This document shows positions 1 to 44,853 of a DNA stretch of 44,853 bases, piece after piece. A program made the translations under genes and the position numbers. The notes beneath the pieces are model-generated. The model did not search any database. It was not told the origin of the DNA and saw only the letters and a program-made list of their open reading frames with translations. Within the stretch, counting starts at the first letter, position 1. The number at the start of each line of letters is the position of its first letter. The stretch comes from Macrostomum lignano (lineage: Eukaryota), in NCBI GenBank assembly GCA_002269645.1, contig NIVC01004470.1, positions 1 to 44,853 on the forward strand. The letters are read 5' to 3'.

Positions 1-914
1 GCCGCAGCGTCAGGGCGCAACCTTCTTTTCTTACTTGGCCGCCTGCCCTCAGTGAATCTCGGGCTCAGTGCGCAGCTGGGCAGGCGGCAATCTGTGTTTG
101 TAAATCATGCCGGGCCATCAATTCCATTTGTTACTCGCTGGCCCAGTGTGCAGCCGCCTCAGCTAAGTTTTTGTCTGGCGGCTGCTGAGGCGGCCAAATC
201 AAAACGCCAGGCCCGGCGTCAGTTGCGCAGCCTGCAGGCAGTAGGAGAAATGGTGGCTGTGCGACCGCTCGGCTGTGAAATGTCACCGTTTTCAATGCAT
301 TGTTTCATTTGCTTGCAGATGAGGATGCGGCGAATCAGAAAGTTTCGAACTTTTGTGGGCACCTTCGATTTTGATGCAATTATTGCGATATGCCCAAAAT
401 GATCAACCATGATCAGCTGAAACCAGGGAGACGGAGCTGAGTGAAGCGGACTGAGGTCTCCTCTATTGCGCTTCCACCTGCCAGTCTGATAAAATAATAG
501 CTGCACAATTATATTATTATTGCCATTGCCTTTCATCGCCCCACAGCAGCAAGGCCTGAATGAGGCTGTGAATTTGGCTGGCAGGCAAATCAGCTGAAAT
601 TCCCCGTTCATCCAGGCTGAGGTCACGTGACAGCCACGCAATACCCTTTCAGCATGTTGGCCCGCGCGTCTGTTGTTGACGCTACTATCATCATACAATT
701 ATTTATGATTAGCCGGAAGTAATAAAATGCATGTTACACTGTATTCAGCAGTACAATACGGCAATTCTGAATCAGAGACCTATGCTCAGGCCAGACCAGC
801 TTCTTCCAGACCGATCGGGGGGTGACGCTTGAGTGCACTATGGTCCTCTTATAATTTAATTTAACCTGATGTGAATAGGTTTTGAAGGCTATCAAATTGG
901 CAGTATTAGGAACC

Positions 915-2119
915 TAAGCACAACCCTGAGCGCAACCCTGATCACAAACCTGAGCACAAACATGAGCACAACCCTGAGCACAACCCTGAGCACAACCCTG
1001 AGCGCAACCCTGATCACAAACCTGAGCACAAACATAAGCACAACCCTGAGCACAAACCTGAGCACAAACATGAGCACAACCCTGAGCACAACCCTGATCA
1101 CAAACCTGAGCACAAACATAAGCACAACCCTGAGCACAAACCTGAGCACAACCCTGATCACAAACCTGAGCACAACCTGAGCACAACATGAGCACAACCC
1201 TGAGCACAACCCTGATCACAAACCTGAGCACAAACATAAGCACAACCCTGAGCACAACCCTGAGCGCAACCCTGAGCACAACCCTGAGCACAAACCTGAG
1301 CACAACCCTGAGCGCAACCCTGAGCACAACCCTGAGCACAACCCTGAGCACAACCCTGAGCACAAACATAAGCACAACCCTGAGCGCAACCCTGAGCACA
1401 ACCCTGAGCACAAACCTGAGCACAACCCTGAGCGCAACCCTGAGCACAACCCTGAGCACAACCCTGAGCACAAACCTGAGCACAAACATAAGCACAACCC
1501 TGAGCACAAACCTGAGCACAAACATGAGCACAACCCTGCGCACAACCCTGATCACAAATCTGAGCACAAACATAAGCACAACCCTGAGCACAACCCTGAG
1601 CACAACCCTGAGCACAAACCTGAGCACAAACCTGAGCACAAACCTGAGCACAAACATAAGCACAACCCTGAGCACAAACCTGAGCACAACCCTGAGCGCA
1701 ACCCTGAGCACAACCCTGATCACAAACCTGAGCACAAACATAAGCATAACCCTGAGCACAAACCTGAGCACAAACATAAGCACAACCCTGAGCACAACCC
1801 TGATCACAAACCTGAGCACAAACATAAGCACAACCCTGAGCACAACCCTGAGCGCAACCCTGAGCACAACCCTGAGCACAAACCTGAGCACAACCCTGAG
1901 CGCAACCCTGAGCACAACCCTGATCACAAACCTGAGCACAAACATAAGCACAACCCTGAGCACAAACCTGAGCACAAACATGAGCACAACCCTGAGCACA
2001 ACCCTGATCACAAACCTGAGCACAAACATAAGCACAACCCTGAGCACAACCCTGAGCGCAACCCTGAGCACAACCCTGAGCACAAACCTGAGCACAAACA
2101 TAAGCACAACCCTGAGCAC
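915..2119. repeat. 12-bp minisatellite, about 100 units (CTGAGCACAACC / CTGAGCACAAAC / CTGATCACAAAC / ATAAGCACAACC / CTGAGCGCAACC variants)
   Basis: Tandem unit read directly. It explains the STTL, VLRV and CAQG ORFs on both strands. Confidence 0.97.
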
Positions 2120-3440
2120 ATGTGCTCACGTGGTGTACACATTTACTAACTTTCTCATCGTCAGGCAGTGTACTCGTACTGTCTCAGCTCCTGGAAACGT
2201 AGTTGACTTCGATCAATGCGTAAATCGCACAATTCCAGGTCAAAATCTCAATAAGATGAACGAATCTTTTTGGTGCGAGGGTCGATCGGGCGTTCGGAAA
2301 TCACGAAATCACCTACCATAGTGGTTGTTCCACATAGACAAGAACTATACTCATTTTTCATGGATGCGCACGAATATGCTTGTAAATTTACAAAAGTGTA
2401 AATTTATATTTATGCCATCTGTGCGTGTGTGCGAGTTTTCGATTAGAATTCCTTACTAGAATTATTAGAGTTCATGCGACACTTGAAATCTCGTGAGTAC
2501 TGGACGAACTCGGAATGCAATGATTGATTAAACTCTTGTTGGACAACTCTACACAATGACACTTTACACAGGCAAACTTTGTCCGAACTTCTTCGATTCA
2601 ATCCCCTTTGTTCGCGAGGAGTCACGAGGACAGCTTAAACTTATTCATGATTGTGTAAATGGATTGTTAACTAATTTAGGTACAATTAAATGTACAATCA
2701 AGGACTAATCAAGCAGAAGAAAGGGAAAAGTCGCTTCTTGGAAAATTTTAGGAGGCAAGTTTTTCCGAAAAAGAAACTTCGGGGACATGAGTTTTTAATT
2801 TTTCTGCGCAAAAATGTTATTGCTTTCGATTGTGTTTTTGAATTCAAACTGCATTCCAGCTCAAATTCGATTGATTTTCTCTCCGGCTACGCATCTGTCT
2901 TAACAATGACAAATGTTTTTTGGAATAAATTCAGAATATAATCCATGTTCTTGTATTGAAGTCACATTGACGCACATGAACACCTTAGTCCTTACTGCCA
3001 AATTTACTAATTACAGATGCTCATGTTCTAACATTCATTGAATTTCCGAGCTTATTTATAAAAAATAAAATAATGGTTTAAACAAAATGTCATGGCTTTG
3101 AATTTACTAGCTACAAAAGATTTTATTTTTTGTTATAAAAATAACAAATAGTGTTAGGAATAAAATAATTTTAAACTTTTGATCTGAAAGTTTTGTTTCT
3201 AAATAGCGTAGGCTGACATATTCAAGGTGCTTTTGAGCTAAATGTTTTTCAAAAAGTTTTTTACTTTGATGATTTGGTGACTAAAATTATCCCCAAAAAC
3301 AAAATCGATTAATCATATTTTTTCCATTTATTATCCTTTCCGCGGAAACTTTGACGAAAATGTCGCGGAAATGTGACGATCTAGGATAACCAGCCTGAGC
3401 AGCCAACGAGAGCTCATAAGTGGCTAAAGCATTTTATGCA

Positions 3441-16992
<13,552 letters not shown>

Positions 16993-17672
16993 GCTGCAGA
17001 GACCTTGGAGATGTCTAATTCGACTTATTCGATTCCACTTTCATTCTTTGTGACCGCTTAAACGCGTTAGAGTAGTTGCTCTGCGGCGGAGTGCAACTTT
17101 GAATGACCTATGTGGACCTGAGGCCAACTTGTGTCGCTTGGGGTGACCTGGATTGATCTTGACCTGGATTGACCCCGTGAGATATAGGTTGACCCGCTGT
17201 GACTTGGATTGACCCCTCGGGACCTTGTGCGACTTGGATTGAACTCATTTGACCTCTTGTGTTTGTGTTCATATGTTTTTTATAATAGCCTCTTGTGCCT
17301 CAGCAGAGGTGGGTCTCAGCAGATGGGGCCTCAAACGGTCCACTATTTCGTTTTAAACTCTTTTCATTGCGCTGCGCGCCTGCACAGAGTTGCACATTTT
17401 ATTTCCGAGCCTTGCTATTTTCTTCTAGTATTTTTCTTGATTTCAGGCTTAGTCTTTGTTGCTGATTAGCTGCCGCCTTTCACTTTGCTGGTCAGTTTAG
17501 TGCCAATGTTCAACTCTGATTGTTTCTGAGCTACCTTTCGAGCTCGCCACCGCTCCATCTGGCACGTCCGGTACGTGGTTTCACTTCTTTAGTTTTTTTC
17601 GGTTTACAAAGCTCGATTTTTTTAGGATATCGATATGTACACTGACAACGATTGACAGTACATGCACTGCAG

Positions 17673-17830
17673 CAGGGGTGCCGCCATGGATGATATGGTT
17701 GGGGGGGGAACTTAACTGAAAATCTTACACGCAAAAATCCTGTATTATTTTGGGAATTTGTGTTGGTAATCCGCTTTTAGTACTGATTTTGGGCGCTGCA
17801 GGCACTCATTTTGGCTTATTTTGGCGTCCT
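17673..17830. mobile_element. Truncated relative of the MITE at 3981
   Basis: 5' end CAGGGGTGCCGCCATGGA resembles TAGGGGCGTCGCCATGGA. One internal unit GCAGGCACTCATTTTGGC at 17798-17815. No right TIR or TSD found. Confidence 0.55.
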
Positions 17831-18301
17831 TGAGCTAAATTCTTGATTCTTGGAAAGTTAAGCCAGATGACACTCCAATGGGTGATGCGTGACTTCGAAC
17901 GTATCTGTGCCAGGGGTCAGCGGATGGGTGTGACTGCTGGCCTCGCTGGTTGCGGGGGTTGAAGCTGTCACCGCGGAAGGTGCACCAACACCCACTGTGC
18001 TGATGCTGCAAAAAGTCATTTCCTTTGTTAATTCGGCAATTTTTGCTTTTTGAAATTTGTCAGAACTGTTGCGAATTAAATATTACAAGCTTGTTCAAAG
18101 TGCTCAATATACTGGCAAATATATTTCTTTAGAGAATTCAAATTCATTTGAAATTGCTTAAAAAGTCGAACTATCCCGCTGTGGAGTCTTTTTAGTGCTT
18201 TAATTCACTGCATCCCGGTTTGACAGCAAGTTGGCTCTGTGCTGTACTGTATCGTATCGTACGTTCAGGTGACGGCTGAAGCACGTGGAGCAGCTGGAGA
18301 T

Positions 18302-18940
18302 GACTCTGGAGGCATGACTAAGATGGCAAAGGGGGCGGCAGTTTAAGGTGACTCTGGAGGCATGACTAAGATGGCAAAGGGGGCGGCAGTTTAAGGTGAC
18401 TCTGGAGGCATGACTAAGATGGCAAAGGGGGCGGCAGTTTAAGGTGACTCTGGAGGCTTGGCTAAGATGGAAAAGGGGGCGGCAGTTTAAGGTGACTCTG
18501 GAGGCTTGGCTAAGATGGCAAAGGGGGCGGCAGTTTAAGGTGACTCTGGAGGCTTGGCTAAGATGGCAAAGGGGGCGGCAGTTTAAGGTGACTCTGGAGG
18601 CTTGGCTAAGATGGCAAAGGGGGCGGCAGTTTAAGGTGACTCTGGAGGCTTGGCTAAGATGGCAAAGGGGGCGGCAGTTTAAGGTGACTCTGGAGGCTTG
18701 GCTAAGATGGCAAAGGGGGCGGCAGTTTAAGGTGACTCTGGAGGCTTGGCTAAGATGGCAAAGGGGCGGCAGTTTAAGGTGACTCTGGAGGCTTGGCTAA
18801 GATGGCAAAGGGGCGGCAGTTTAAGGTGACTCTGGAGGCTTGGCTAAGATGGCAAAGGGGGCGGCAGTTTAAGGTGACTCTGGAGGCTTGGCTAAGATGG
18901 CAAAGGGGGCGGCAGTTAAGGTGACTCTAGAGGCTTGCGC
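18302..18940. repeat. 48-bp minisatellite, about 13 units
   Basis: Unit GACTCTGGAGGCTTGGCTAAGATGGCAAAGGGGGCGGCAGTTTAAGGT. Confidence 0.96.
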
Positions 18941-19915
18941 GAAGATGAAAAATGGGGCAGTTGAAGGTCACACTGAGACTTGGTGGCGCTGGATACACAG
19001 GTGACGTCAGAGACTTGTCCGTACGTTGGGGGTATTTTCTTGGCAGAATGTAAAAGTACTTTGTTTGATCAACAAGCTGTTTACCTATTCTTGAAAAGCC
19101 TTTAGATAACGCTTTTCCGAGTAAGCTTTGTGCACTAAGATCTCTTTCTGCTCGATCTTATCTCATGCTCAAGAGCCCGCTGCAGGACCTTTGCTCCCTC
19201 GGGCCGTTCCAGTCGAAAGAACAAGAGCTGTGAAAATACACCTCTCGATTGTCCTCCATGAAAGCAACAGAAAATTCCAAGCTTGCAAAGAAGAACATGC
19301 GAAAATACTAGCTCGCGTCTCCACTCTGACGCAGCAGCCAGGGCAGAAGAAAGCCCTAAGCCTCAGGACCGAATGCACAACTCACCCTCCCTGCTGCCCC
19401 CACTGGCGCCAGAGCTTTTTCGGAGAATAACAATTGCTCAGCTCAAGGCAACTGCATTCCAGGCTGCTTGTGTGTGGGCTGTTGCTGAGCCCAGGGCATT
19501 GTGGGCGATTAACCAGTTGTTAATCTATGGCGCCGCTCTCAACAGAAACATTGCTGCTCGTACATTCTACCCCCCCCAAGCTGACAAATAGACTCCATGG
19601 ACTACTAAAGCACAAACTTGATGGGAAAGGATATGACCAAGCTGCGTACACCCAAGTATGCAAAGCATCTGCTAGTCATTGAAACAGAAAAAGCCAGGAG
19701 TTCTATGGAGCACAATATATTGACATGCGGGCTGGGAATAGCGATGTGAAATGGAAATAGCGATTTCCAATCCAGATGCTTAGGTGCAGTAATCCATGCG
19801 CCACGGGCAAAAAATTTTATAAATTTATAGCTGTGTCTCCGCCTGTGCAGGACCCTGAGACAACGGATCGCAATTCCAAGAAATCTCTGCTTGCCAAACC
19901 CAGAAGCCCGCAGCC

Positions 19916-21325: not shown

Positions 21326-21684
21326 AGGGGGCCGTAGCCCAGCGGTCTAGCGCAGGCTCAGGTGTGCCAGCGACCCAGGCTCGATTCCAAGTGCAGTCAC
21401 ATTAATTTGGGGCTGAATTGGAATCTCGGCTTGGCTCTTCTCGTGCAATTAACGGCCTTGAGAGACAACCCCCCAAGGCGCAGTGAAGTGTACATGCCTA
21501 ACGATAAAATAAAGTTAGGGACGCTGTACACTCCTGTGTGAGTGTGTGCCTGCGTACATATCCGCGCGCTTGTGTGCCTGCTCAGGGGAGTCGGCGGAAT
21601 GGGCAGTGATGCCTCTCGCCGGTTTTGTGCCTATGTCGCTTAAAGTGCGCCAAGGTGCACACAACCCCCTGCCTCTAATAAAAA
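21326..21684 (+). mobile_element. tRNA-derived SINE, copy 3
   Basis: A box TAGCCCAGCGG, B-box-like GGCTCGATTCC, tail CCTCTAATAAAAAA. Perfect 13-bp TSD AGGGGCAGGGCTT at 21313-21325 and 21685-21697. Confidence 0.92.
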
Positions 21685-25629: not shown

Positions 25630-26961
25630 TGTGCTGTTCCACTGCTCGTTTGAGAACAAAAAAGAAAAGCTTTTGAGGACCATACACGCGCAAAACTCTC
25701 AGGACCCTCGCAAGACCTTACTTACCTTCAAATCTCCTTAGCAAAACAGTTCTTAAGAACACTAAAGAGTGGAGCTTTTCTGGCCACAGCTGATCCGCTT
25801 CTTGCAAAGTGGGGGCGTCTCTGTCCGTCCCTCCGTCGCACTTCTTTATAAGCTCTGCTGGCTCTTTGTCTAGCCACAGATATATTTCAGCCCGCTCACC
25901 AACCCAATCCAGGGTCGGGTTGGAGGGCCAGGGCAGCGGACTAACCTACAGAACCGCGCTGGGGTTGCAGCGTTGCCTGTCAGCTCTAAGGGTAGTTTGC
26001 CAGCTGGCTCTGTCTGTTGAATCCTTCACTGCAGAGGCTACTAACTAAGCAGAAACCCAGTTGTGGCAAACAATATGCGCAGCGAATATCTAAACAACAC
26101 CGCTTGCTGTGCGCATAATTAGAAGGCTACCGTGGCTTATCGAGAAGTTTGATCCGAGTGTTGTGTCATTGCGGCGGTGCTTCAAGTGTAGGGGCCTGTT
26201 TAGCCTTCTTAGCTAGTGTATAGAGGGTAGGTCAGGCTATACAGTGCCGCCTGCGCCCTGCATGTTTCAAATAACAATGAAGAAGTGGCTAAAATTGCAT
26301 GTTGCGGTTTAAAGTACGGCACGGATAATTTTTGGTTCGAATCGTTATCAGAGTGGACAGAATGAACAGAGTGAATGTAAAGTACATGTAGAGCTAAAAA
26401 ACATAAGCTTGTTTGCATAATAAAACTAATAATATAAAATTTCGATTACACCTGTCCCAATTGAGCCAGATGTGCAACCGACAGCTCAGCCACAGCTATT
26501 GCGCGGCGCATCTGACGGCTGCGCTGCGTACGGCTGTTCAGTCCAAGGACTGGGGAGGTGGGTCGCCACACTCACCCTCAATTACCTAATCTAATTATCT
26601 ATTATCTAAATTTCAATTATCTAATCTTAATATAATTTAGGGACTATTGTAGGGACTATTAAGAATCGGATTTAGGTTAGGTAATAAATGGTAGGAAATT
26701 AGGAAATTGCAATGCTATCAGAGCGTGGTGGAGTGTAGCAGTTGTGGACAGCTGCACTCTTACAAAGAGCCACAGGTGCTTGATGACGGTATTATGAAGT
26801 CCAGGCTGCCCTAAAAGTCTGCTTCCACTTTAAAGGGTCTTTATGTCTTTCATGCGGGGCGGGGATCCAACTACATCCAATACTAAAGATATTTCAGATG
26901 ACGCACAAGTGGGAAGGTCCGTGGGAATCGGCTAGAATTACGAGTCTAGGAACCCCACCAA

Positions 26962-27365
26962 TAGTGTCAATAGTGTCAATAGTCACCGTGTCAACAGTCA
27001 CCGTGTCAATATAGTCACCGTGTCAATAGTCACCATGTCAATAGTCACCATGTCAATAGTCACCGTGTCAATAGTCACCGTGTCAATATAGTCACCGTGT
27101 CAACAGTCACCGTGTCAACAGTCACCGTGTCAATAGTCACCGTGTCAATAGTCACCGTGTCAATAGTCACCGTGTCAATAGTCACCGTGTCAATAGTCAC
27201 CGTGTCAACAGTCACCGTGTCAATAGTCACCGTGTCAATAGTCACCGTGTCAACAGTCACCGTGTCAATAGTCACCGTGTCAACAGTCACCGTGTCAATA
27301 GTCACCGTGTCAACAGTCACCGTGTCAATAGTCACCGTGTCAATAGTCACCGTGTCAATAGTCAT
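26962..27365. repeat. 15-bp minisatellite, about 26 units
   Basis: Unit GTCACCGTGTCAA(T/C)A. Confidence 0.95.
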
Positions 27366-34244: not shown

Positions 34245-37200
34245 TCACAACGGGCAGCTTCTCGGAAGTCCGCTGCAGCAACCACGCCTCGGACTGCGGG
34301 TTTCTCGATCCGGTCTGGAGCTGCTGATTCCATCGTCGGGTGAGAAATCCACGGTGATGAGGACGCCGTTGTTCTCGGAGCCCCACTCCAGCACCAGCAG
34401 GTGCTCAGTGGTGGGGTCCCAAGCCATAGCACCTGCAGGAAAGTGTTGATTAGTGCTTCCAGCAACAAAGGCAATTAAAACACGAACTTGGCACAGAAAC
34501 GAAGCAGGCCTCCGTCAATAAAAAAGTGTTTCGAACTTTAATCTACGAGTATATTTGGCTTAAAGCAAACTTAACACGAAAAAGAAAAAAAATTCACTGC
34601 GAGAAGGCAAAGTGAGCCGCCAGTAGAGCGCGACGGGGGTTTAAAAACACCCCTGCCACCCAAGGGGGGGGCAGGCGGCGATGTACAATCAACGCGCTGG
34701 GCACTAAAGCCGGTTTTTGCACTTTCGCCGCACAAACCAGTCCATTAGTGCTTCCAGCAACAAAGGCAATTAAAACACGAACTTGGCACAGAAACGAAGC
34801 AGGCCTCCAAAGCCAAACACAACGGGGGATAAGAGCAGCAGCTAGGCATTGAGCAAAAAACAAATCAGCGGGAAGACCACCGTCAAAAATGAGCACTAAG
34901 GGCGGAAAAAAAATGCAGAGAGGCCGCAGCAGTGGCAACACCCGAGCGGGGCAAGTAGCGCTCCACCGCCGAACTCTTCCAGTCGCCGATCCGCTGGATC
35001 TCCGCCACCGGCAGGCCCATGCGAGCTGCCCAGGTGGCTCCACCTCGACGCAGGCTGTGAGCCGAGTAGAGCTTGCCGCCACACCCAGCCCTCTGCAGCT
35101 TAGAGTCAAGAAACCGGTCCAAGTCCCGAGCAGCTAGATGGCGCCGCTGTCCATTGCGATCGATGAAGGACCAGAGTGGCGCCTCGGCCATCGCCAGCTT
35201 GTTGACACACAGATGTCGGCGAATCGCCACTACCGGGCAGAGCGCGGGGCAGGCGGGGAACTTCGGAAGCAGGACGTGGTGGACTCGATCACGGAACTGA
35301 ATAGTCTTGCCAAAGTCCACGCTTAAGAGGAGGCCGCAACGGTGAGGTGTCAGATTCTGCACCTTCATCCCACTACCCAACTGAGGCGACGATAGAAGGA
35401 GTGATGATTTTCGCAGCATTCCCCACCAGGCAGTGATGGTGACCGCCCAGCAGGCCAGTTGCCGATTGTCGCCCTTGTCAACCAGAGACCAAAGCTTTTG
35501 CAGCACCGACGGAGACATTGGTAGCTTCTGGTTGACCTGAAGCCCCAGCGCTCGCTTGCAGCCCCGCAGCAGATGCTGGGTGAGGGTGTGCTTCGTCAGG
35601 TCCTGAGCGCCGTTCAGCCGAAACCACAGTGAAAGCGAGCTGACATGACCGCGAACGCTACTGTAGGCTCGCAGGCGCGTGCCCGTGAGGCCAGCCAGGT
35701 AGTTTAGCAGCGTGGACACAGTACACCCGGCGGGGTCGAGTCCCTTGGCTGAGCAGTACGCGCGCCAGGACCGCACGTGTGAGCTGATGGCGCTTTTCGA
35801 GCGGGCCGCGTAGGAGGAACCGAGTAGTTCACGGGCTCGGTGGCTGAGGTGGTCTGGCGCAGTCTGGCGACCTGAAAACGGAGAAAAGCGGATGTGGCAG
35901 CAGAAAGCGTGTGCCGGGAAAGCGAGCAATTGGTGAGACGCATCAATGAGCCATAAAAGCGCAGCAAAAAATTCAACAACTGACTGCCCTCGTGCAGCCG
36001 AGACGCGGCGTCAGCAAAAATAAAAAATTCACTGCGAGAAGGCAAAGTGAGCCGCCAGTAGAGCGCGACGGGGGTTTAAAAACACCCCTGCCACCCAAGG
36101 GGGGGGGGGCAGGCGGCGATGTACAATCAACGCGCTGGGCACTAAAGCCGGTTTGTGCACTTTCGCCGCACAAACCAGTCCAGTTGTAACATTTAAGAAC
36201 TTCAGATCGGCATCCGATATGAGCTCTTAAATAATAGAAAAGGTTTTTGAAATCTATTTCTCAGCTAGAGTTTTGGGGAATGAAGTTATTGGATCATAGA
36301 AATTGCGAACGTTCTCATGAATCACACGTGAGTGAGCAGGTGTTCTTGGATTGCTGATCTTTTACTCATAGTCCAATGCTCCTTAGTCCTAGTGTGCAGG
36401 TGTCGCTTGATTTTCACTATATAGGAGACTCTGCTCTTCAGAGCACTGAAACTTATTAACGACACCTGCAGTAAGCGGTAGAGGGAAACGGGACTTCAAG
36501 CTGCAGACATCCTGAGACAACACAGTGCAAAAAAGTGATCCAGAGCTGAACGCTGAGACTCTTTTGAACAGTTCAAGCTCAGAAGCCTAATTTGAACTGT
36601 CAGTCAGCTATAGGGGGTGCCAGCCATTAACTCAACGTGTTCTGGGTAGGGTTGTAGACTACTACACCCTATTCTCTCTCTCTGCCCCTTCTTCTACCTA
36701 AGCCTGACCCTTTGTTGCACAAATTATACTGTAAATCGTGTTGTTATTAAATACATGTACGAATATAACTTGCTGTCTATCTTCAAAAGCTGCCCTGAAG
36801 ATGACCGAACTGGTCAAAATGCATTGGCATAGAATTTTTGAGTAAATAATAAATTACGGATCAAATTATTCCTCTTAATTGCTCGCGCAATACTCGTTTT
36901 CTCCGTGTTCTTTTATTGAATCACGGCATTTTTATCACAACATTTCACATCGGTCAGCTTCAGCTCATCTTCACCACAAGTTATGAAGGCCTTTAGCGTT
37001 AGGCGATACACCACACCACTGAGTATCATGATCTTAACCACGGGATGTCTTACATGGCACAGCCGCGGCCCCATCAGAGCAGCTCGCAACAGCGTACAGG
37101 CGTTCCTGCAGCACCGGGCAGCCCGAGGTGGCAGCGCTGGCCGCCTCACTGTCACTCGGAGGCACAGGGAAGGCCAGGCTGATCAGCTTGCAGCCGTGCG

Positions 37201-38262
37201 GCACGCTGAAAAAAGCTGTGGCCTGGCGCCGGTCCACCACGCAGCTGCGAATTTCTCCAGCTGCCAGGCGGTCGTCGAGTCGCTGCAGCACCGGCAGGCA
37301 GCAGGCGCTTGGGCTAGGGCTGAACAGACTGGTCTTGTTGGAGGCGAGGAGCAGCGACCCAGCCGTCAGCACATAAACTGCGTGGTCGAATTCCATCAGG
37401 GCGACGGCAGGGCCACCGAGATTTTCGGAGGTCGTAGGGAGAAAGTTCTATGGTGTCGCGGAAAGTATGTTGTAACCCAGTCTCAAGCTTAGTATTTCTC
37501 AAGCTGCAATTCTCTCAGCCACTCAATATTTAATGTGTACATTAGTGTGCATTCATTGCTTTACTGCAATAACTTCAACCCTTTCACTGTGTACGCCGGA
37601 GCTTAAGCCTTCTAACTTCTCTGAGTTCTGATCTGGCTTCAAACTGCTGCGTACACAGTGGAGTTGAAGCTGTTGAGTGAAAATTTACCATTAACCGGCT
37701 CTAAAAGTTCACACTGCCGATAGTAACTATGCAGGTAAAAAAATTGCTCAAACAAACAAATCAGTTTAAAAAGGGTTTTGAGCAAAAGGGTTTAAAAAGG
37801 ATTTGAGCAATTTGAGCAAGAGCTACTGGGGGTAATGTGAATCAGCCTTGAAGGTCCAGTTTTACCAAGGTCAAATCAATGTACAGTTGGTTCAGACAAA
37901 CATTAAATTTGATTTGAGCAATCTTTGGAGCAACGAGCTCGTGCTGGCGGTAATGTGAACCGGCCTTCCTTGACCGCAATCGCTAAGTTCAACTGCATGT
38001 GAATTGGTTTTATAGTACCAACACTTTTTTATCTGCTAAGAATGAGCAAATTCAAAAACTCACATAGCTGCTCTGACAGTTCAGCCGGATCACCAATGGC
38101 TCCAGTTGCATGTCCAGGTCAATAACCAGCAGGTGGTGCTCGTAAAGCAGATAAACTTTGTGTTCAGTCTGGTTGAATTGCATTCCGCGGCACTCGGCCC
38201 CATCTGGAAACCGTTTTGCATGTTTGAACAGTAAACTGCTGATAACTAAACTGCTCGATAGT
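34245..38262 (-). CDS. Partial host gene, beta-propeller-like (NHL/TolB-like blades); 5' part not found in the window
   Basis: Phase-consistent exons ~38262-38064 (FPDGAECRGMQFNQTEHKVYLLYEHHLLVIDLD..., donor GTGAGT, phase 0), 37447-37054 (donor GTAAGA, phase 1) and 34432-34245 (join reads AVP-C-AMAWDPTTEHLLVLEWGSENNGVLITVDF). The fold call is pattern-based only. Confidence 0.55.
34449..36182 (-). mobile_element. 1.73-kb tyrosine-recombinase element with split direct repeats (Ngaro/PAT-type DIRS derivative), lacking gag and RT/RNaseH
   Basis: Minus-strand order: A1 (36182-36022), YR ORF, B1 (34808-34744), A2 (34744-34587), 73-bp spacer, B2 (34513-34449). The B copies are identical over 65 bp and the A copies near-identical. 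Confidence 0.85.
34883..35929 (-). CDS. DIRS/Ngaro-type tyrosine recombinase
   Basis: N-terminal SAM-like region (WRAYC...LLNYLA...LRGCKR) and catalytic motifs WWGMLRKS, YSAHSLRRGGAT, GDWKSSAVERY (R-HxxR-W-Y). No in-frame ATG until about residue 138. Confidence 0.92.
   Translation of the reverse strand: MLAFPAHAFCCHIRFSPFSGRQTAPDHLSHRARELLGSSYAARSKSAISSHVRSWRAYCSAKGLDPAGCTVSTLLNYLAGLTGTRLRAYSSVRGHVSSLSLWFRLNGAQDLTKHTLTQHLLRGCKRALGLQVNQKLPMSPSVLQKLWSLVDKGDNRQLACWAVTITAWWGMLRKSSLLLSSPQLGSGMKVQNLTPHRCGLLLSVDFGKTIQFRDRVHHVLLPKFPACPALCPVVAIRRHLCVNKLAMAEAPLWSFIDRNGQRRHLAARDLDRFLDSKLQRAGCGGKLYSAHSLRRGGATWAARMGLPVAEIQRIGDWKSSAVERYLPRSGVATAAASLHFFSALSAHF
36280..36870 (+). mobile_element. Degenerate Penelope-like element remnant (tentative)
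   Basis: Decayed peptides EQVFLD and ETLLFRALKLI weakly resemble the PLE RT C-terminus, followed by a minimal hammerhead motif and an AATAAA-like tail. Confidence 0.4.
36791..36829 (+). ncRNA. Minimal type I hammerhead ribozyme motif, probably inactivated (G12 to A)
   Basis: TGCC-CTGAAGA-T-GACC-GAACT-GGTC-AAAA-TGCA-TT-GGCA: stem I TGCC/GGCA, stem II GACC/GGTC, palindromic TGCA stem III. The core reads AAAA instead of GAAA. Confidence 0.6.
37654..38001. mobile_element. Possible foldback MITE in an intron
   Basis: Imperfect terminal inversion CACAGTGGAGTTGAA / TTCAACTGCATGTG, with repeated TTGAGCAA and GGTAATGTGAA motifs and inverted counterparts. No clear TSD. Confidence 0.3.
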
Positions 38263-38624: not shown

Positions 38625-39110
38625 CACTGCGGAGATATGAGCCCTATCTCTGTGCATTGGGGACGGCTAAGCACTGCAGAGATATGAGCCCTATCTCTGT
38701 GCATTGGGGACGGCTAAGCACTGCAGAGATATGAGCTCTATCTCTGTGCATTGGGGACGGCTAAGCACTGCAGAGATATGAGCTCTATCTCTGTGCATTG
38801 GGGACGGCTAAGCACTGCAGAGATATGAGCTCTATCTCTGTGCATTCGGGACGGCTAAGCACTGCAGAGATATGAGCTCTATCTCTGTGCATTGGGGACG
38901 GCTAAGCACTGCAGAGATATGAGCTCTATCTCTGTGCATTGGGGACGGCTAAGCACTGCAGAGATATGAGCTCTATCTCTGTGCATTGGGGACGGCTAAG
39001 CACTGCGGAGATATGAGCTCTATCTCTGTGCATTGGGGACGGCTAAGCACTGCAGAGATATGAGCTCTATCTCTGTGCATTGGGGACGGCTAAGCACTGC
39101 GGAGATAGAG
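38625..39110. repeat. 47-bp hairpin-forming tandem array (10 full units plus a partial), bracketed by a duplicated 39-bp hairpin block
   Basis: Unit CACTGCAGAGATATGAGCTCTATCTCTGTGCATTGGGGACGGCTAAG with stem CAGAGATA/TATCTCTG. Block ATGATACTGCCGC...GCGGCAA at 38564-38602 and 39118-39156. One more degenerate unit near 39177. Confidence 0.93.
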
Positions 39111-39558
39111 GCGATTCATGATACTGCCGCACTAGCACTGGCGAGATAGGCGGCAAAAAGGATATAGGAAAAATACACTGCGGAGAGGATCCTATCTCTG
39201 TGCATTGGGAACGGCTAAACATTGCAGAGATAAGAGGGGTGGCCAATCTCTGTGCTCTGTGTTAGGGTGAGGTTATAAAGTTTTACAACTGCACAGAGGA
39301 CGGCTGGTGTTGCTTACCTGGATAAGGGGACGGGGGGGATACACTAATTACAGCCGGTGGCCTCTATAACGGTAAAGTAATTATTACCTGAGCATGGCTG
39401 GATGTTCATATACGATATGATAAGGAGAGGGCATGCATGTACAAATTACTATATAAGCAGCCACGCAAGTACAAATAAACAAATAGACAAAAACAAATTG
39501 TATAAAAGGATTTTTAAAAACCTTACTACTTCTAAAAAACAACTCTTTCTCTTTCAAA

Positions 39559-40870
39559 ATGAAAACTTTTAAAAGTTGTCATAGAGACCTCTATGAGGTC
39601 TGTATAAGCTGCGAAGTGTGCCTGCTTGGAGGCGTGTCCCCAAGACACCACGACAATAAGAGAACTGTCTGGTCTCATGCTGGTTGGCATGCGACCAGTG
39701 CGGCACCGTCGAAGCTCTGCAGGAGGGAAAAATTCCAGCATATCATCGAGGACACAGGATCGTCAGCGATGACAAGAAAAAGCAAGAAAGTAACCGCTGG
39801 AAAGTAATCCGCGCCATCAAAAAGAGCAACGAGAGAGAAAAGAAGATCCAGCAGAAAAAGGGAGCCAGCAGGAGTCTGCTATCAGCTCACTTGAGTCAAG
39901 TAATTGACTCTACATTGAAGAGGATGAGGCCAAGCGGGTCTTCAGCAGCTGCAGAATTTGAAGTTGAGCTGTCTGCTGGAGTCGAGGCTGCTGGAGTCGA
40001 GGCTGCTGGAGTCGAGGCTGCTGGAGTCGAGGCTGCTGGAGTCGAGGCTGCTGGAGTCGAGGCTGCTGGAGTCGAGGCTGCTGGAGTCGAGGCTGCTGGA
40101 GTCGAGGCTGCTGGAGTCGAGGCCGCTGGAGTCGAGGCTGCTGGAGTCGAGGCTGCTGGAGTCGAGGCTGCTGGAGTCGAGGCTGCTGCTGTCATAAACT
40201 TCATAGAGGAAGATGTCCTGGATCAGTTCCTCAGGGAATTCAACGCTGGTCAGCAGCAGCAGCAACCTGTCTCTTCGGTTCCGGTGATTGCTGGAAAACA
40301 ACTTCATCTAGTTGAAGACGACCACGAAATGGAAATCCTAGAAGAGGAGGGCAGCGACAATGAGTCGCATAATGCAATTGTGCCACCTGCAGCTCCAGCC
40401 GCCCCAGCTGCTCTGGCCGCCCCAGCTGCTCTGTCCGCCCCAGCTGCTCTGGCCGCCCCAGCTGCTCCAGCCGCCCCAGCTGCTCTGGCCGCCCCAGCTG
40501 CTCTGGCCGCCCCAGCTGCTCTGGCCGCCCCAGCTGCTCTGGCCGCCCCAGCTGCTCTGTCCGCCCCAGCTGCTCCAGCCGCCCAGCTGCTCTGGCCGCC
40601 CCAGCTGCTCCAGCCGCCCCAGCTGCTCTGGCCGCCCCAGCTGCTCTGGCCGCCCCAGCTGCTCTGGCCGCCCCAGCTGCTCCAGCCGCCCCAGCTGCTC
40701 TGGCTGCCCCAGCTGCTCCAGCCGCCCCAGCTGCAGCCTCTACAATTCCAGCTTCTCAATCCGAAACTCCACCCGTGCCAGCTGGAGTTGCCTTCTTTCT
40801 GCCTCCTGTCGGCGGGGCTGGGTACGAGGTAACGATTTTCGAAAATCGTATTAGAATTGTGCCGCTGTGA
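39559..40870 (+). CDS. Polinton ORF1, unknown function: Cys/His-rich N-terminus, basic coiled region, (GVEAA)n and (APAALA)n repeats; two -1 frameshifts
   Basis: Adding one A at ~39659 and one C at ~40583 gives a continuous ORF MKTFKSC...CISCEVC...ENCLVSCWLACDQCG...FFLPPVGGAGYEVTIFENRIRIVPL*. A TATATAA sequence lies near 39450. Confidence 0.6.
39975..40187 (+). repeat. Coding 15-bp tandem repeat (GVEAA), about 14 units
   Basis: Unit GCTGGAGTCGAGGCT. Confidence 0.95.
40390..40735 (+). repeat. Coding 18-bp tandem repeat (APAALA)
   Basis: Unit GCCCCAGCTGCTCTGGCC with CCA/TCC variants. Confidence 0.93.
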
Positions 40871-41752
40871 CTAAGCAATTTTTGTACTTTTTTGCTTTCT
40901 GTGTGGAGTGAGAAATCTACCCATTTATTGCAATTATTGCTAAAACTTTATTTCAACTAGCTTTTTAAAGTTGAAAGTAGGTACATTAATTAATGATTTG
41001 ATCATCTCATAACTCTGTATTCGCTTCTAGGAATCTTGCTTATAAGTTTTCAGTTTTCATTTCCAAATTAGTTTTAAAAAAAGCTCGTAGCTCGTAGTGG
41101 CAACCAATATTTTTTTGGTATCCGAGGTAAAAAAATTATTTGAAAAGTAGGTGAAACATTATACAGTTGAATTTAACAAATTAAAATCAACATAACATAC
41201 TTTCAATAAATTGGTGATGGTTTCGTATGCTTGGTGCGATTGATTAGGTATAATTTTCTTTCTACTGCTTTGACGCGGTGTTTCCTCATTCTTTAATTAT
41301 TGAACTTTTCAGCTATATTTCTGCTTCTAAACTCTCGTCTGTATTTGTAATTCATTGTTCCATGCATTGTTTATTGACTATGATTGCACCATGTGAATTC
41401 GATAATTTTTTTAAAATATATATATATAATGTCAGCATTTTTCCACTCGGTGATTGGTTTGTTAATTAACTATTGGCTTCATTTTGCATTTTTTACCGAT
41501 TGAGTCTGCGTAGGAGGCAAATAGAAACGAACTTTTACGAATAGGGATCAATAGAATATGCATGCAGAGAGCTAGCTTAAGGGAGAACCAAAAAAATATA
41601 ACCAGCATCTACTAGCTTGTAAGTGTGGATATTGTACCAGTATTGCAGCAATAAAGACTTACGAAAAAGATTTCCAATATTCACTCCCAGTTGCTTATGA
41701 CACTCAGTTGCAGCCAGTAAACACTGTCAGCTTTTAACTGCTTGCCTTTTCT

Positions 41753-44700
41753 ATGGTTGAGCACTCCTGGATGGAGCAGGAGAATGACCACTCATGGATG
41801 GAGAATGACCACTCATGGATGGAGAATGACCACTCATGGATGGAGAATGGCCACTCGTGGATGGAGGATGACCACTCGTGGATCGAGTATGACCACCCTT
41901 GGGTGGACCATGACGTCAGCAGCGAGTCAGCAGCCAGCAGCGAGTCGGCAGCCAGCAGCGAGTCGGCAGCCAGCAGCGAGTCGGCAGCCAGCAGCGAGTC
42001 GGCAGCCAGCAGCGAGTCAGCAGCCAGCAGCGAGTCAGCAGCCAGCAGCGAGTCAGCAGCCAGCAGCGAGTCAGCAGCCAGCAGCGAGTCAGCAGCCAAC
42101 AGCGAGTCGGTGACTGATGCACACCAAGGTAAGTGCCTTTATTTATCCTTTTCAACTTACTTAAAAATTTTCTTATCAATGCGATGTATATTATGCAGTC
42201 TAAAAATTTAGTCCAAAGAATGGGAGAAGGGGAGATAAAAGACTTTATACCGGTAGGGTTGTACATGTATGCTTGGGTACAGACGTTTAGTTTAGTATCT
42301 TTGATATTTGAAACTATAGGCAGCAAAAAACAAAAATATTATCCTAAAACCACAAACCAGGTTCAACAGTCAGCTTCAGCAGAGTTGCCCAAGCCTATGA
42401 TCAATCACTGGAAATACTGAGGCTCAGATCGAGTCACCCAGACACGCTTCCGTCAGAATTTTTTGTCCAAGCTGGAGACAAAATTATTGAGGCAGTTCAG
42501 CAAAGAATTTCAATACATCATTACAAAGTTCAGCTAAAGGCGAATATTCGAATGGTCCGAATAAGAGATGGGGAGATGCTTGCCGAAGAGGACAGATGGA
42601 TAAGCTGTAAAATGCAGGCCCTAGACCTAGGTGGTGAAGCAGGCCGTTTAAACAACTGGTTGATTGAGCAGGAGCAGGAGTTGGAGAGGATCTGTAGTAT
42701 GATTAATACGAACGGCAGTGGCTGGACAATTAAACAAATTAATTTTCTAGACATCAACCTTGCCAGGTACAATCCAATTCGATTTCGCCAGGGCAGAGCC
42801 GTTAGATTCAATCTTCCTGCCAGTTTGAAGAACAAAAAGGCTGTTATCAATCCACCGAGCACAGGCAAAGACTGTTTCCTGTACGCCTGTCTCGCTGCAC
42901 TGCACAGCGCCGATCCGAAAGTTCAGAAATCGCCCAACAGAATATCCTCTTACGATGAATGGTTGCGTGAGCTGGACTTTGCAGAAATCTCCATGCCAGT
43001 GAGTGTCGCTGATATCGATCGCGTCGAGTCTAACAATCCAGGAATTTGCATTTCTGCGTTCTCTTGGCAGCAGGGCAGTGTGACTCTTCTCCGTCGCCGC
43101 AAGCATGAGTCAGATGACCGAAGACACCTCATGCTTTTGCTAGTTAAAGACAGCTACGGATCGGAGCACTGGTGTGCAATTACTAATTTTGACAGGTTAA
43201 TGAACAGTCGTAATGGTCCCGCCATGAGGAAGTGGTGCACGAAATGTTTAACATCATTTTATAGCAACGAGAGGCTTCAAGAGCACAGGAACGAATGCAG
43301 CATTACTGCAGAAAATCCTGTCAAAGAAACGCTTCCAGTTCCAGGACAGAATGAAATAAAGTTCCGAAACTGTCAAAACACTGTCAGTCCACCATTCGTT
43401 GCCTATGCCGACCTGGAAGCCATTTTGCGAGCGAACACAGACCCTGCTAACCTGATCTCAAAGCATGAACCATGTGCAGCAGCTTTTCTTGCAGTGCCTC
43501 GTGAAGGCATGACAGGACCTCCGCTTAGGCCAGAAGGAGACATGTACAAGGTCTTTTGCAATGCGGACCCTGATGAGTGTATCCTTGGTTTTCTCAAATC
43601 TCTGAAAGCCTGGCTCAGGATATATTTCACTGGAACCAGAAGCATAGCCACCAGCCGGCTGACCGATCATCCGCGACCTCATGGATGATTTCAATTCTGC
43701 TGAGGTATGTCACTACTGCAAGAAGAACTTTAAAAGTTCTACAGATAAACATTTTGACCACGATCATTTAAATGGACAGTACAAAGGTGCAGCATGTCAA
43801 GAATGCAACCTGCGAGCACAGCTCCGACGCCGGTTTCTGCCCCTGGTTTTTCACAACTTAGGCGGCTACGACCTTCATCTTCTACTTTCCACTGCGCTTG
43901 GGAGCATGAAAAATTGGAAACTTAGTGTTGTTCCGCAATCATCCGAGCGATACTTGTCACTAAGGGCGGAATTCCCTGTTGCAAGTTACGTAAAGAACGG
44001 AAAAGTTGTGCCAATCATGTTTACAATTCAGTTCATCGACTCGCTCTGCTTTTTGAAGGGAAGTTTGTCCAATTTGTTTGCTAATCTTCCCGAAGCTGAA
44101 TGCAAGCTGACAATGCAAATGCTTGAGTCAAGACCACATCTTTCAAGAGAGCTACTTCGAAAAAAAGGGATTTTCCCATATGATTACCTCACAGGATTTG
44201 AGATTCTCGAGCAGTCGGTTTTGCGCCTAAAGATGCTTTTTTTAATCGACTTTCCGATCGGGAATTTCCGACGACGACTACAATAGAGCAAGAGCGGCAT
44301 GGGCGGCATTTCAATGCAAAGTTTGAAGGATTATATGCTCGCCTATCTTGAAATGGATGTAAGGCAGCTGGCTGACATTTTCGAGACATTCCGACAGGCC
44401 AGTCTGAAAGAGGACGGATTGGATCCGGTACACTACTTTACTACTCCTGGTTTGTCTTACGACTCAGCTCTAAAGTCGACTGGAGTGGTTCTAGAGCAGC
44501 TGACTGATGCTGACATGTATATCTGTTTGAGAAAGGGAATACGAGGAGGCATGTCCTTCATTAATGTGCATTGCGTCAAAGGTAATAATCCTAGCTTGCC
44601 AGGTTATGATGATCAGCAAGAGAGTGTAAGCCTCATGCGATCGATATGAACAACTTGTATGGCTTTGCCCTGTCGCTTCCGCTTCCATGCAGGGAATTCA

Positions 44701-44853
44701 GGTGGGTACCGGAACAGGAAATCCAGTTCTGGGACTCCAATCGGTTTCTGTCACTCAATCCAGAAGCCGAGATCGCCTACCTTGTTCAACTCGATCTAGA
44801 ATACCCAGCTGAGATTCAGCGATTCGACTCAGGAGTTACCGTTTGCACCTGAA
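41753..44853 (+). CDS. Protein-primed DNA polymerase B (pPolB) of Polinton type, with predicted N-terminal repeat exon (41753-42128), intron, several frameshifts and a 3' end beyond the window
   Basis: Motifs FVAYADLEA (ExoI), FHNLGGYDLH (ExoII), FIDS, KKGIFPYDY, YLEMDVRQLAD (ExoIII), GLDPVHY...PGLSYD, GIRGG, DMNNLYG. Zinc finger CTKC...HRNEC. Endonuclease VII-like CHYC...DHDHLNGQYKGAACQECN insert. Confidence 0.93.
41767..42108 (+). repeat. Adjacent 21-bp (MENDHSW) and 18-bp (SSESAA) tandem repeats in the predicted first polB exon
   Basis: Units ATGGAGAATGACCACTC(A/G)TGG and AGCAGCGAGTC(A/G)GCAGCC. Confidence 0.9.

Follow-up and report, generated by a model that had tools for sequence, protein, structure and literature searches.

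Ngaro, PAT and VIPER retroelements share a split-repeat architecture, in which a left repeat (A1) and the open reading frames (ORFs) are followed by B1, A2 and B2 (PMC8547959, PMC9210276). The lack of a methyltransferase between RNase H and the tyrosine recombinase (YR) fits Ngaro, not PAT or DIRS1 (PMC3783388, PMC13465315). For split-repeat replication, the available excerpts cite only a proposed model, and among 2241 fungal YR elements the truncated or incomplete ones are in the majority (PMC3783388). Here we describe an element of this kind in Macrostomum lignano, on contig NIVC01004470.1 (GenBank assembly GCA_002269645.1), whose full 44,853 nucleotides are called the window below. We consider it likely that this element is a recently integrated, internally deleted Ngaro-like copy, with a YR that is a passenger of full-length relatives.

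The element occupies 36182-34449 of the minus strand and is 1734 bp long. According to self-BLAST and global alignment, it has the order A1 - YR - B1 A2 - 73 bp - B2, with the following repeats and spacer.

36022..36182, minus strand: A1 repeat, 161 bp, 5′ end of the element, from alignment to A2
34744..34808, minus strand: B1 repeat, 65 bp; its last T is the first T of A2 (internal B-A junction)
34587..34744, minus strand: A2 repeat, 158 bp, from alignment to A1
34514..34586, minus strand: unique spacer, 73 bp, between A2 and B2
34449..34513, minus strand: B2 repeat, 65 bp, 3′ end of the element, identical to B1

A1 and A2 match in 157 of 158 aligned columns, with one substitution and an additional 3-nt gap in a C run, and B1 and B2 are identical at 65 of 65 positions. 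Both repeat pairs are far beyond chance, because the longest exact repeat across 300 mononucleotide shuffles of the element was only 14 nt. Split repeats of this element type are expected to be near-identical upon insertion (PMC6681497), and since there is one substitution in 223 repeat sites, the insertion appears to be young. An earlier sequence-only reading of this locus had claimed complete, near-identical split repeats and a recent insertion; the alignments bear out the former and support the latter, and they give the same sequence for the B-A junction. Within the element the repeats are direct only, and neither DIRS1-like inverted terminal repeats nor an internal complementary region is found. 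Elsewhere in the window, a search for further A or B copies gave nothing above chance matches of 11-15 nt. Rfam gave 0 matches.

Directly past A1, the element carries the end of a polymerase gene.

35704..36021, minus strand: ORF2 (pol) remnant with the RNase H C-terminal motif ADAASRL and a tail, 105 codons and a stop, from BLASTP to P0153
36016..36032, minus strand: deletion junction, where the 3′ T-run of A1 is joined to the last RNase H motif with imperfect microhomology

The frame that opens directly past the A1 T-run reads I-F-A-D-A-A-S-R-L, with 105 codons before its stop. By BLASTP, its tail aligns to residues 285-343 of P0153 (35/59 identical, E 3e-17); P numbers denote homologous proteins here. 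P0153 combines an RVT_1 match with an RNase H end and with a YR that shares 51% identity with that of the element. The same RNase H motif stands shortly ahead of the YR in P0169 and P0259, and in all three proteins the YR begins within 41-69 residues of the motif. We take the ADAASRL-type motif to be the RNase H C-terminal acidic motif, an assignment backed by its position after the reverse transcriptase (RT) in P0153. In the element, the ORF2 tail overlaps the YR exon by 168 nt. No methyltransferase follows RNase H, and the ORF2 tail has 0 Pfam matches at E<=1. A tblastn search of the window with 11 long relatives (E<=0.01) found no remains of gag or RT. The earlier claim that gag and RT/RNase H are absent thus stands for gag and RT, but the end of RNase H and the ORF2 tail remain at 36021-35704.

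Because the RNase H end and the ORF2 tail adjoin A1, the element is read as an internal deletion of a full RT-RNase H-YR element, and its sequence indicates that this parent was Ngaro-like. A one-off deletion had been offered earlier as an alternative, and the pol scar behind A1 makes it the better reading. In the ORF2 frame, the junction reads S-E-F-F-I-F-A-D, compared with G-E-F-Q-I-F-A-D in P0153; the E-F pair makes up 0.12% of codon pairs on the minus strand of the window. The A-derived junction bases match the lost pol bases in register, which points to a homology-guided event. The join falls exactly after the Q position. In the lineage of P0153 (residues 286-290), P0169 and P0259, a Q stands just ahead of the hydrophobic-x-A/S-D RNase H motif, a position where N is usual, and this Q could make a cryptic CAG acceptor at the deletion point.

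In class, the locus agrees with Ngaro in its split repeats, in the recombinase with the R-K-H-R-H/W-Y set as the last gene, in the missing methyltransferase and in the overlap of the pol and YR frames. Of the gag and RT/RNase H ORFs of an autonomous Ngaro, only the RNase H end is left. The methyltransferase that follows RT/RNase H in PAT-like elements is absent, and the 161-bp and 65-bp repeats together with the RNase H remnant do not fit a Crypton.

The YR is the best preserved part of the element.

34883..35871, minus strand: tyrosine recombinase exon, 328 codons after a split codon, Cre-like
35413, 35308, 35059, 35050, 34981 and 34957, minus strand: first bases of the catalytic codons for R, K, H, R, W and Y, respectively
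35872..35896, minus strand: phase-1 splice acceptor (CAG) of the YR exon, with its polypyrimidine tract
34809..34882, minus strand: untranslated stretch, 74 bp, from the YR stop to B1

The YR frame spans 36010-34883 (minus strand) with 375 open codons. Counting residues from 35872, the catalytic residues R154, K189, H272, R275, W298 and Y306 are all present, and each is at least 90% conserved in an alignment of 103 sequences. The match to Pfam Phage_integrase is weak (E 2.3e-5, under the curated cut-off), and a sequence search of the PDB gave only marginal matches to Cre (E 0.04-0.1); the fold search was decisive. The AlphaFold model of the YR (predicted local distance difference test score 94, predicted template-modelling score 0.88) aligns to Cre over its full length with a template-modelling score of 0.76 (E 6e-13). 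Residues 7-109 form an N-terminal helical domain in the model, which predicts a Cre-like two-domain fold with both domains and the active site intact. Matches in the ESM Atlas are eukaryotic phage-integrase-family clusters, none of them labelled Ngaro. A first search for YR relatives scored 8000 candidates of 206-657 amino acids and gave 30 relatives; a second, which lists 50% cluster representatives, counted 5896 at E<=0.001 (best 150 of 5896 listed). The best relatives among the matches listed are 43-52% identical. Neither a near-identical YR protein nor a host-YR fusion is among these matches, which is weak evidence. In a tree of 34 rows chosen from the search matches, with no named references, the YR of the element stands together with P0153 (support 100/97) and groups with YRs of proteins that also hold RT/RNase H or gag-like parts. 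The intactness of the YR is best explained by the youth of the copy and by the place of the YR as the last gene ahead of the 3′ repeats.

The sequence-only reading had described a full-length YR with all catalytic residues. This holds for the six residues and both domains, but not for a translatable gene, as the first in-frame ATG lies at 35518 (residue 119), past the helical domain at the N-terminus. The open frame begins with 46 codons that look like intron sequence, and homology to relatives starts at the acceptor (exon start 35871). The pyrimidine fraction of this acceptor is 0.82; a fraction of 0.77 is reached by 2.4% of 578 YAG sites, and the downstream acceptor of the host gene has 0.59. 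The gene model of P0152 enters the YR at the same G|R position. For a test of phase, 178 YR matches were reduced to 110 aligned sequences chosen by length, and 30 of these (among homologues P0004-P0299) had enough upstream read-through. An amino-acid trace of a phase-1 acceptor was found in 22 of the 30, against means of 6.3 in shuffles and 6.7 in interior windows; a count of 22 was reached 0 times in 2000 in each control. Traces of phase 0 (3/30) and phase 2 (10/30) were not enriched. We regard the phase-1 trace as strong support, not proof, for a spliced YR exon.

The exon to which the YR would be joined is suggested by P0010, an NCBI gene model of Patella vulgata, in which the YR directly follows an N-terminus that matches the region of P0217 upstream of RT (E 4e-9). 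For P0210, P0254 and P0287, no match was found between the N-terminus and the gag-like parts of P0152 or P0169, and a gag-YR fusion is therefore indicated by homology from P0010 only. Taken together, these data suggest that the YR of Ngaro-type elements is as a rule a 3′ exon reached by splicing, with the start of gag as its probable partner. In the parent, the YR would normally be a phase-1 3′ exon spliced to an upstream exon that bears the ATG, most likely the gag start, which is deleted here. Between A1 and the acceptor there are two ATGs, both out of frame, and no GT[AG]AG donor; a start of the YR at an ATG of its own was rejected on account of this frame. An acceptor-like site inside A1 was also rejected, as a phase-1 join there meets a stop after 18 codons. 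Because the YR is probably a spliced exon whose start exon is deleted here, it is doubtful that the element supplies its own integrase, as had been proposed. The YR is most likely a passenger, and the mini-element would be unable to express the full YR from its own promoter.

Trans-splicing deserves separate treatment. About 30% of M. lignano genes are trans-spliced, with a leader that ends in ATG and an acceptor motif [T/C]TNCAG (PMC8629364), and the ATG of a spliced leader can start translation in flatworms (PMC12582326). At the main YR acceptor, a leader ATG was rejected as a start; it is out of frame and opens only 55 codons in the ORF2 frame.

Putative transcription signals are present in the spacer and in A1.

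36044..36082, minus strand: TATA-like run (from 36082) and initiator-like motif (from 36051) in A1, about 30 nt apart, from motif positions

The sole sense-strand AATAAA/ATTAAA hexamer of the element lies in the spacer (34542-34537), 23 nt ahead of B2. This hexamer is probably a polyadenylation signal, and transcripts would then end at B2 yet pass B1; such a hexamer within 73 AT-rich bases is not rare. The motifs in A1, which resemble the TATA and initiator consensus, may form a putative promoter inside the A repeat. A2 and B2 had been expected to be adjacent. For TOC1, a spacer of 123 bp has reportedly been seen, and a literature search for figures found none. SIRE consists of the A2 of VIPER, about 30 bp of unique sequence and B2 (PMC6681497). 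The spacer is real but not an anomaly, as SIRE and VIPER offer a precedent. Ngaro-specific spacer coordinates were not found in the literature excerpts; the amphioxus and VIPER supplements, as far as available, give repeat sizes only.

We propose the following course of events. The parent would have been a full A1-gag-RT/RNase H-YR-B1-A2-spacer-B2 element. Everything from the T-run at the 3′ end of A1 up to the last RNase H motif is gone; this loss probably arose while the element was reverse-transcribed or repaired, by a jump that microhomology guided. Transcription would start in A1 and end at B2. Because all split repeats remain, an A1-to-B2 RNA could still be copied: following the published model, it would be reverse-transcribed, its ends repaired via the internal B-A junction formed by B1 and A2, and the product circularised at the B-A junction. 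The YR would then integrate the circle at the shared T, with Gag, RT and YR coming from full-length relatives. The earlier suggestion that RT is borrowed in trans is plausible from DIRS-1, whose RT acts in trans and whose other proteins probably also do (PMC7192593).

The element lies in an intron of a host gene on the same strand.

37054..37447, minus strand: exon of the host gene, upstream of the element, with a GTAAGA donor in phase 1 at its end (intron from 37053)
34245..34432, minus strand: probable next host exon, with a phase-1 acceptor at 34433, 16 nt past B2; open for 61 codons

The host exons at 38204-38064 and 37447-37151 (minus strand) are identical to P0300 (UniRef A0A1I8G1L2, M. 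lignano), the first 99 codons of the exon 37447-37054 being 100% identical. P0300 is labelled CNH domain-containing and has no Pfam match, and its residues 1-194 lie outside the contig. The protein comes to its end within the upstream exon; phase and splice signals suggest that the downstream exon belongs to the same gene. In the downstream exon a stop follows after 61 codons, but a different frame remains open to 34127, which may reflect a frameshift. B2 ends in a branch-point-like CTAAT. Without the element, the host intron would be ~887 bp. CAAC is found on both flanks (36186-36183 and 34448-34445), and one T is common to both element ends and the B-A junction. The flanks are compatible with a CAAC-T-CAAC target or with a 4-bp duplication, which would be unexpected for a YR element. 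Spliced to the host donor at 37053, the YR exon would be in frame (phase 1) with 328 open codons, so that the orphan YR acceptor may act as an exon trap and create an in-frame host-YR fusion. Landing on the same strand and in the same phase has a ~1-in-6 chance, and the frame match is therefore no sign of selection.

Several points weigh against a deleted copy with a passenger YR. The phase pattern and its window were set after the homologues had been viewed, and the homologues are related to each other. In 32 of 110 homologues an M start lies 14-24 residues ahead of the anchor, and some of these may use an ATG of their own; the gene models P0010, P0152 and P0153 are predictions. At a second AG (35864), 8 nt downstream of the main acceptor, a leader ATG would be in frame with 326 open codons, although this site lacks [T/C]TNCAG. 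An ATG at 35943 followed by a 68-nt intron from a poor GTCTCA donor would be another weak route to the full YR. No full-length sibling is among the matches listed, the best YR identity being 43-52%. At the junction, the crossover lies 3 nt beyond the in-register match and the microhomology is imperfect. The exact breakpoint and the passenger status, drawn from this one copy, are not proven.

The model of the sequence-only reading amounts to an amplified family of non-autonomous elements with a YR of their own making, for which only Gag and RT would be borrowed. We consider this model unlikely, also in the form of a compact multi-copy mini-Ngaro family that would express the full YR via the leader ATG (35864) or, at this locus, via the phase-1 host exon. 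The intact YR with all its catalytic residues and the intact cis repeats agree with it, as does the trans activity of DIRS-1 RT (PMC7192593). It would need the leader ATG at the second AG, which M. lignano trans-splicing could provide in frame (PMC8629364, PMC12582326), or else the ATG at 35943 with the weak 68-nt intron that follows it. However, a leader ATG joined at the consensus acceptor would be out of frame, the in-frame AG is without the motif, and an open frame is expected in a young copy even without selection. The window contains no second copy of the element, though a single contig says little about the genome. There is no support for the view of the element as an intermediate between DIRS elements and Cryptons with an integrase of its own, given the deletion scar, the YR without its start exon, the YR tree and the retro-type repeats.

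Other explanations of the junction also have to be considered. A reverse-transcribed, spliced sub-genomic RNA, with an A1 leader joined to a cryptic acceptor at the RNase H F-Q codons, would account for the retained pol sequence starting exactly after the Q of F-Q (in P0153 and P0169; M-Q in P0259), and TTY-CAG at F-Q would be a consensus acceptor. We give it a still smaller chance: we see no donor, since A2 has T and C instead of GT where one would stand, the end of the main YR intron is still present, and the upstream in-register match points to homology. A full element collapsed in assembly at homopolymer-rich microhomology seems improbable to us. The junction does lie in T-runs, the difference between A1 and A2 includes a homopolymer indel, and the genome is repeat-rich and partly duplicated (PMC8629364), but the outer junctions are clean, flanked by unique host intron and coherent in phase. 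As a matter of general knowledge, the whole element is also short relative to long reads. The least probable explanation, with a nearly negligible chance, is a Crypton-like DNA element, for which the YR alone would carry out excision and reintegration. The YR is indeed the sole intact coding exon, and the CAAC flanks resemble the 4-6 bp Crypton repeats, but Cryptons have no long direct repeats (PMC3212892). The long split repeats here and the nesting of the YR with RT/RNase H-linked YRs also speak against it, and the RNase H remnant largely refutes it. An internally deleted Ngaro-like copy is thus the reading that we prefer.

A very young Ngaro-like insertion is thereby found in a transgenic, regenerating model animal. 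Its minimal cis cassette (A, B and spacer) and intact Cre-like enzyme could be used to test split-repeat replication. A YR that is a phase-1 spliced exon across diverse homologues would explain an ORF3 without an ATG and predict gag-YR fusion proteins. If the YR were self-expressed, the element would be a retroelement that outsources reverse transcription and keeps integration, a new helper/satellite division of labour. If the host-YR fusion were true, the recombinase would stand at the first step of domestication.

The rest of the window contains further repeats and genes. A 355-bp dispersed repeat has three copies, at 21327-21684 (plus strand), 13157-12804 (minus) and 10409-10096 (minus), 94% and 75% identical. 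It has a tRNA-like head (A-box/B-box-like, by eye) and an A-rich end, and is probably a tRNA-derived short interspersed element; no Rfam match was found. At 42348-44853 (plus strand), a broken gene for a protein-primed DNA polymerase B, in three frames with Endonuclease_7 and DNA_pol_B_2 matches, runs off the contig end; we take it to be Polinton/Maverick-like. A four-exon formiminotransferase-cyclodeaminase (FTCD) gene lies at about 25631-22871 (minus strand). Its tested exon is 100% identical to M. lignano BOX15_Mlig019954g2, and the next-best matches are nearly all unnamed or bacterial proteins at about 45-52%. Minisatellites with periods of 12-53 bp are dense at 913-18958, 26959-27364 and 38625-42108 (41 rows in Tandem Repeats Finder, many overlapping).

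In the literature excerpts searched, we found neither a compact YR-only Ngaro nor a statement that the Ngaro YR is spliced. A search for Macrostomum together with Ngaro found no paper. In a term search of a 2025 paper on M. lignano LTR elements (PMC12801592), the terms tyrosine, recombinase, splic, deletion and non-autonomous were absent.

Among known systems, the element is closest to Ngaro (order DIRS), with which it shares A1-ORFs-B1A2B2, a last YR that overlaps pol, the missing methyltransferase and, as far as the CAAC flanks allow, no clear long target-site duplication (TSD) (PMC8547959, PMC9210276, PMC3783388, PMC8969392). It differs in being 1.7 kb long, compared with about 6-9 kb, with gag, RT and nearly all of RNase H deleted and the YR without a start exon. 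Ngaro type 2b of Cafeteria burkhardae likewise has internal 5′ deletion variants, of nearly equal lengths (4312-4313 and 4733-4783 bp), that recur at several loci or strains (PMC8547959), but these lose ORF1 only (about 2 kb), whereas the element here also loses RT and RNase H. In Ectocarpus, Ngaro-N1_Ec32 and PAT-N1_Ec32 are similarly non-autonomous (A-int-BAB, TSD 0), PAT-N1 keeping a pol fragment, and Ngaro-1_Ec32 has a YR ORF with doubtful pol. The Ectocarpus elements are, however, 6.5-9.5 kb long with internal tandem repeats, and none is described in the excerpts as compact and YR-exon-only. TOC1 of Chlamydomonas (PMC5613634) and SIRE of Trypanosoma cruzi (PMC6681497) are also non-autonomous derivatives of split-repeat YR retroelements, but belong to PAT-like and VIPER lineages, and the excerpts describe neither with an intact YR. 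Cryptons resemble the element in having the YR as sole intact coding part, but are DNA transposons with 4-6 bp terminal repeats and without long direct repeats or RT ancestry (PMC3212892). Deleted and non-autonomous forms of Ngaro are thus already known, and the element described here is ordinary in kind.

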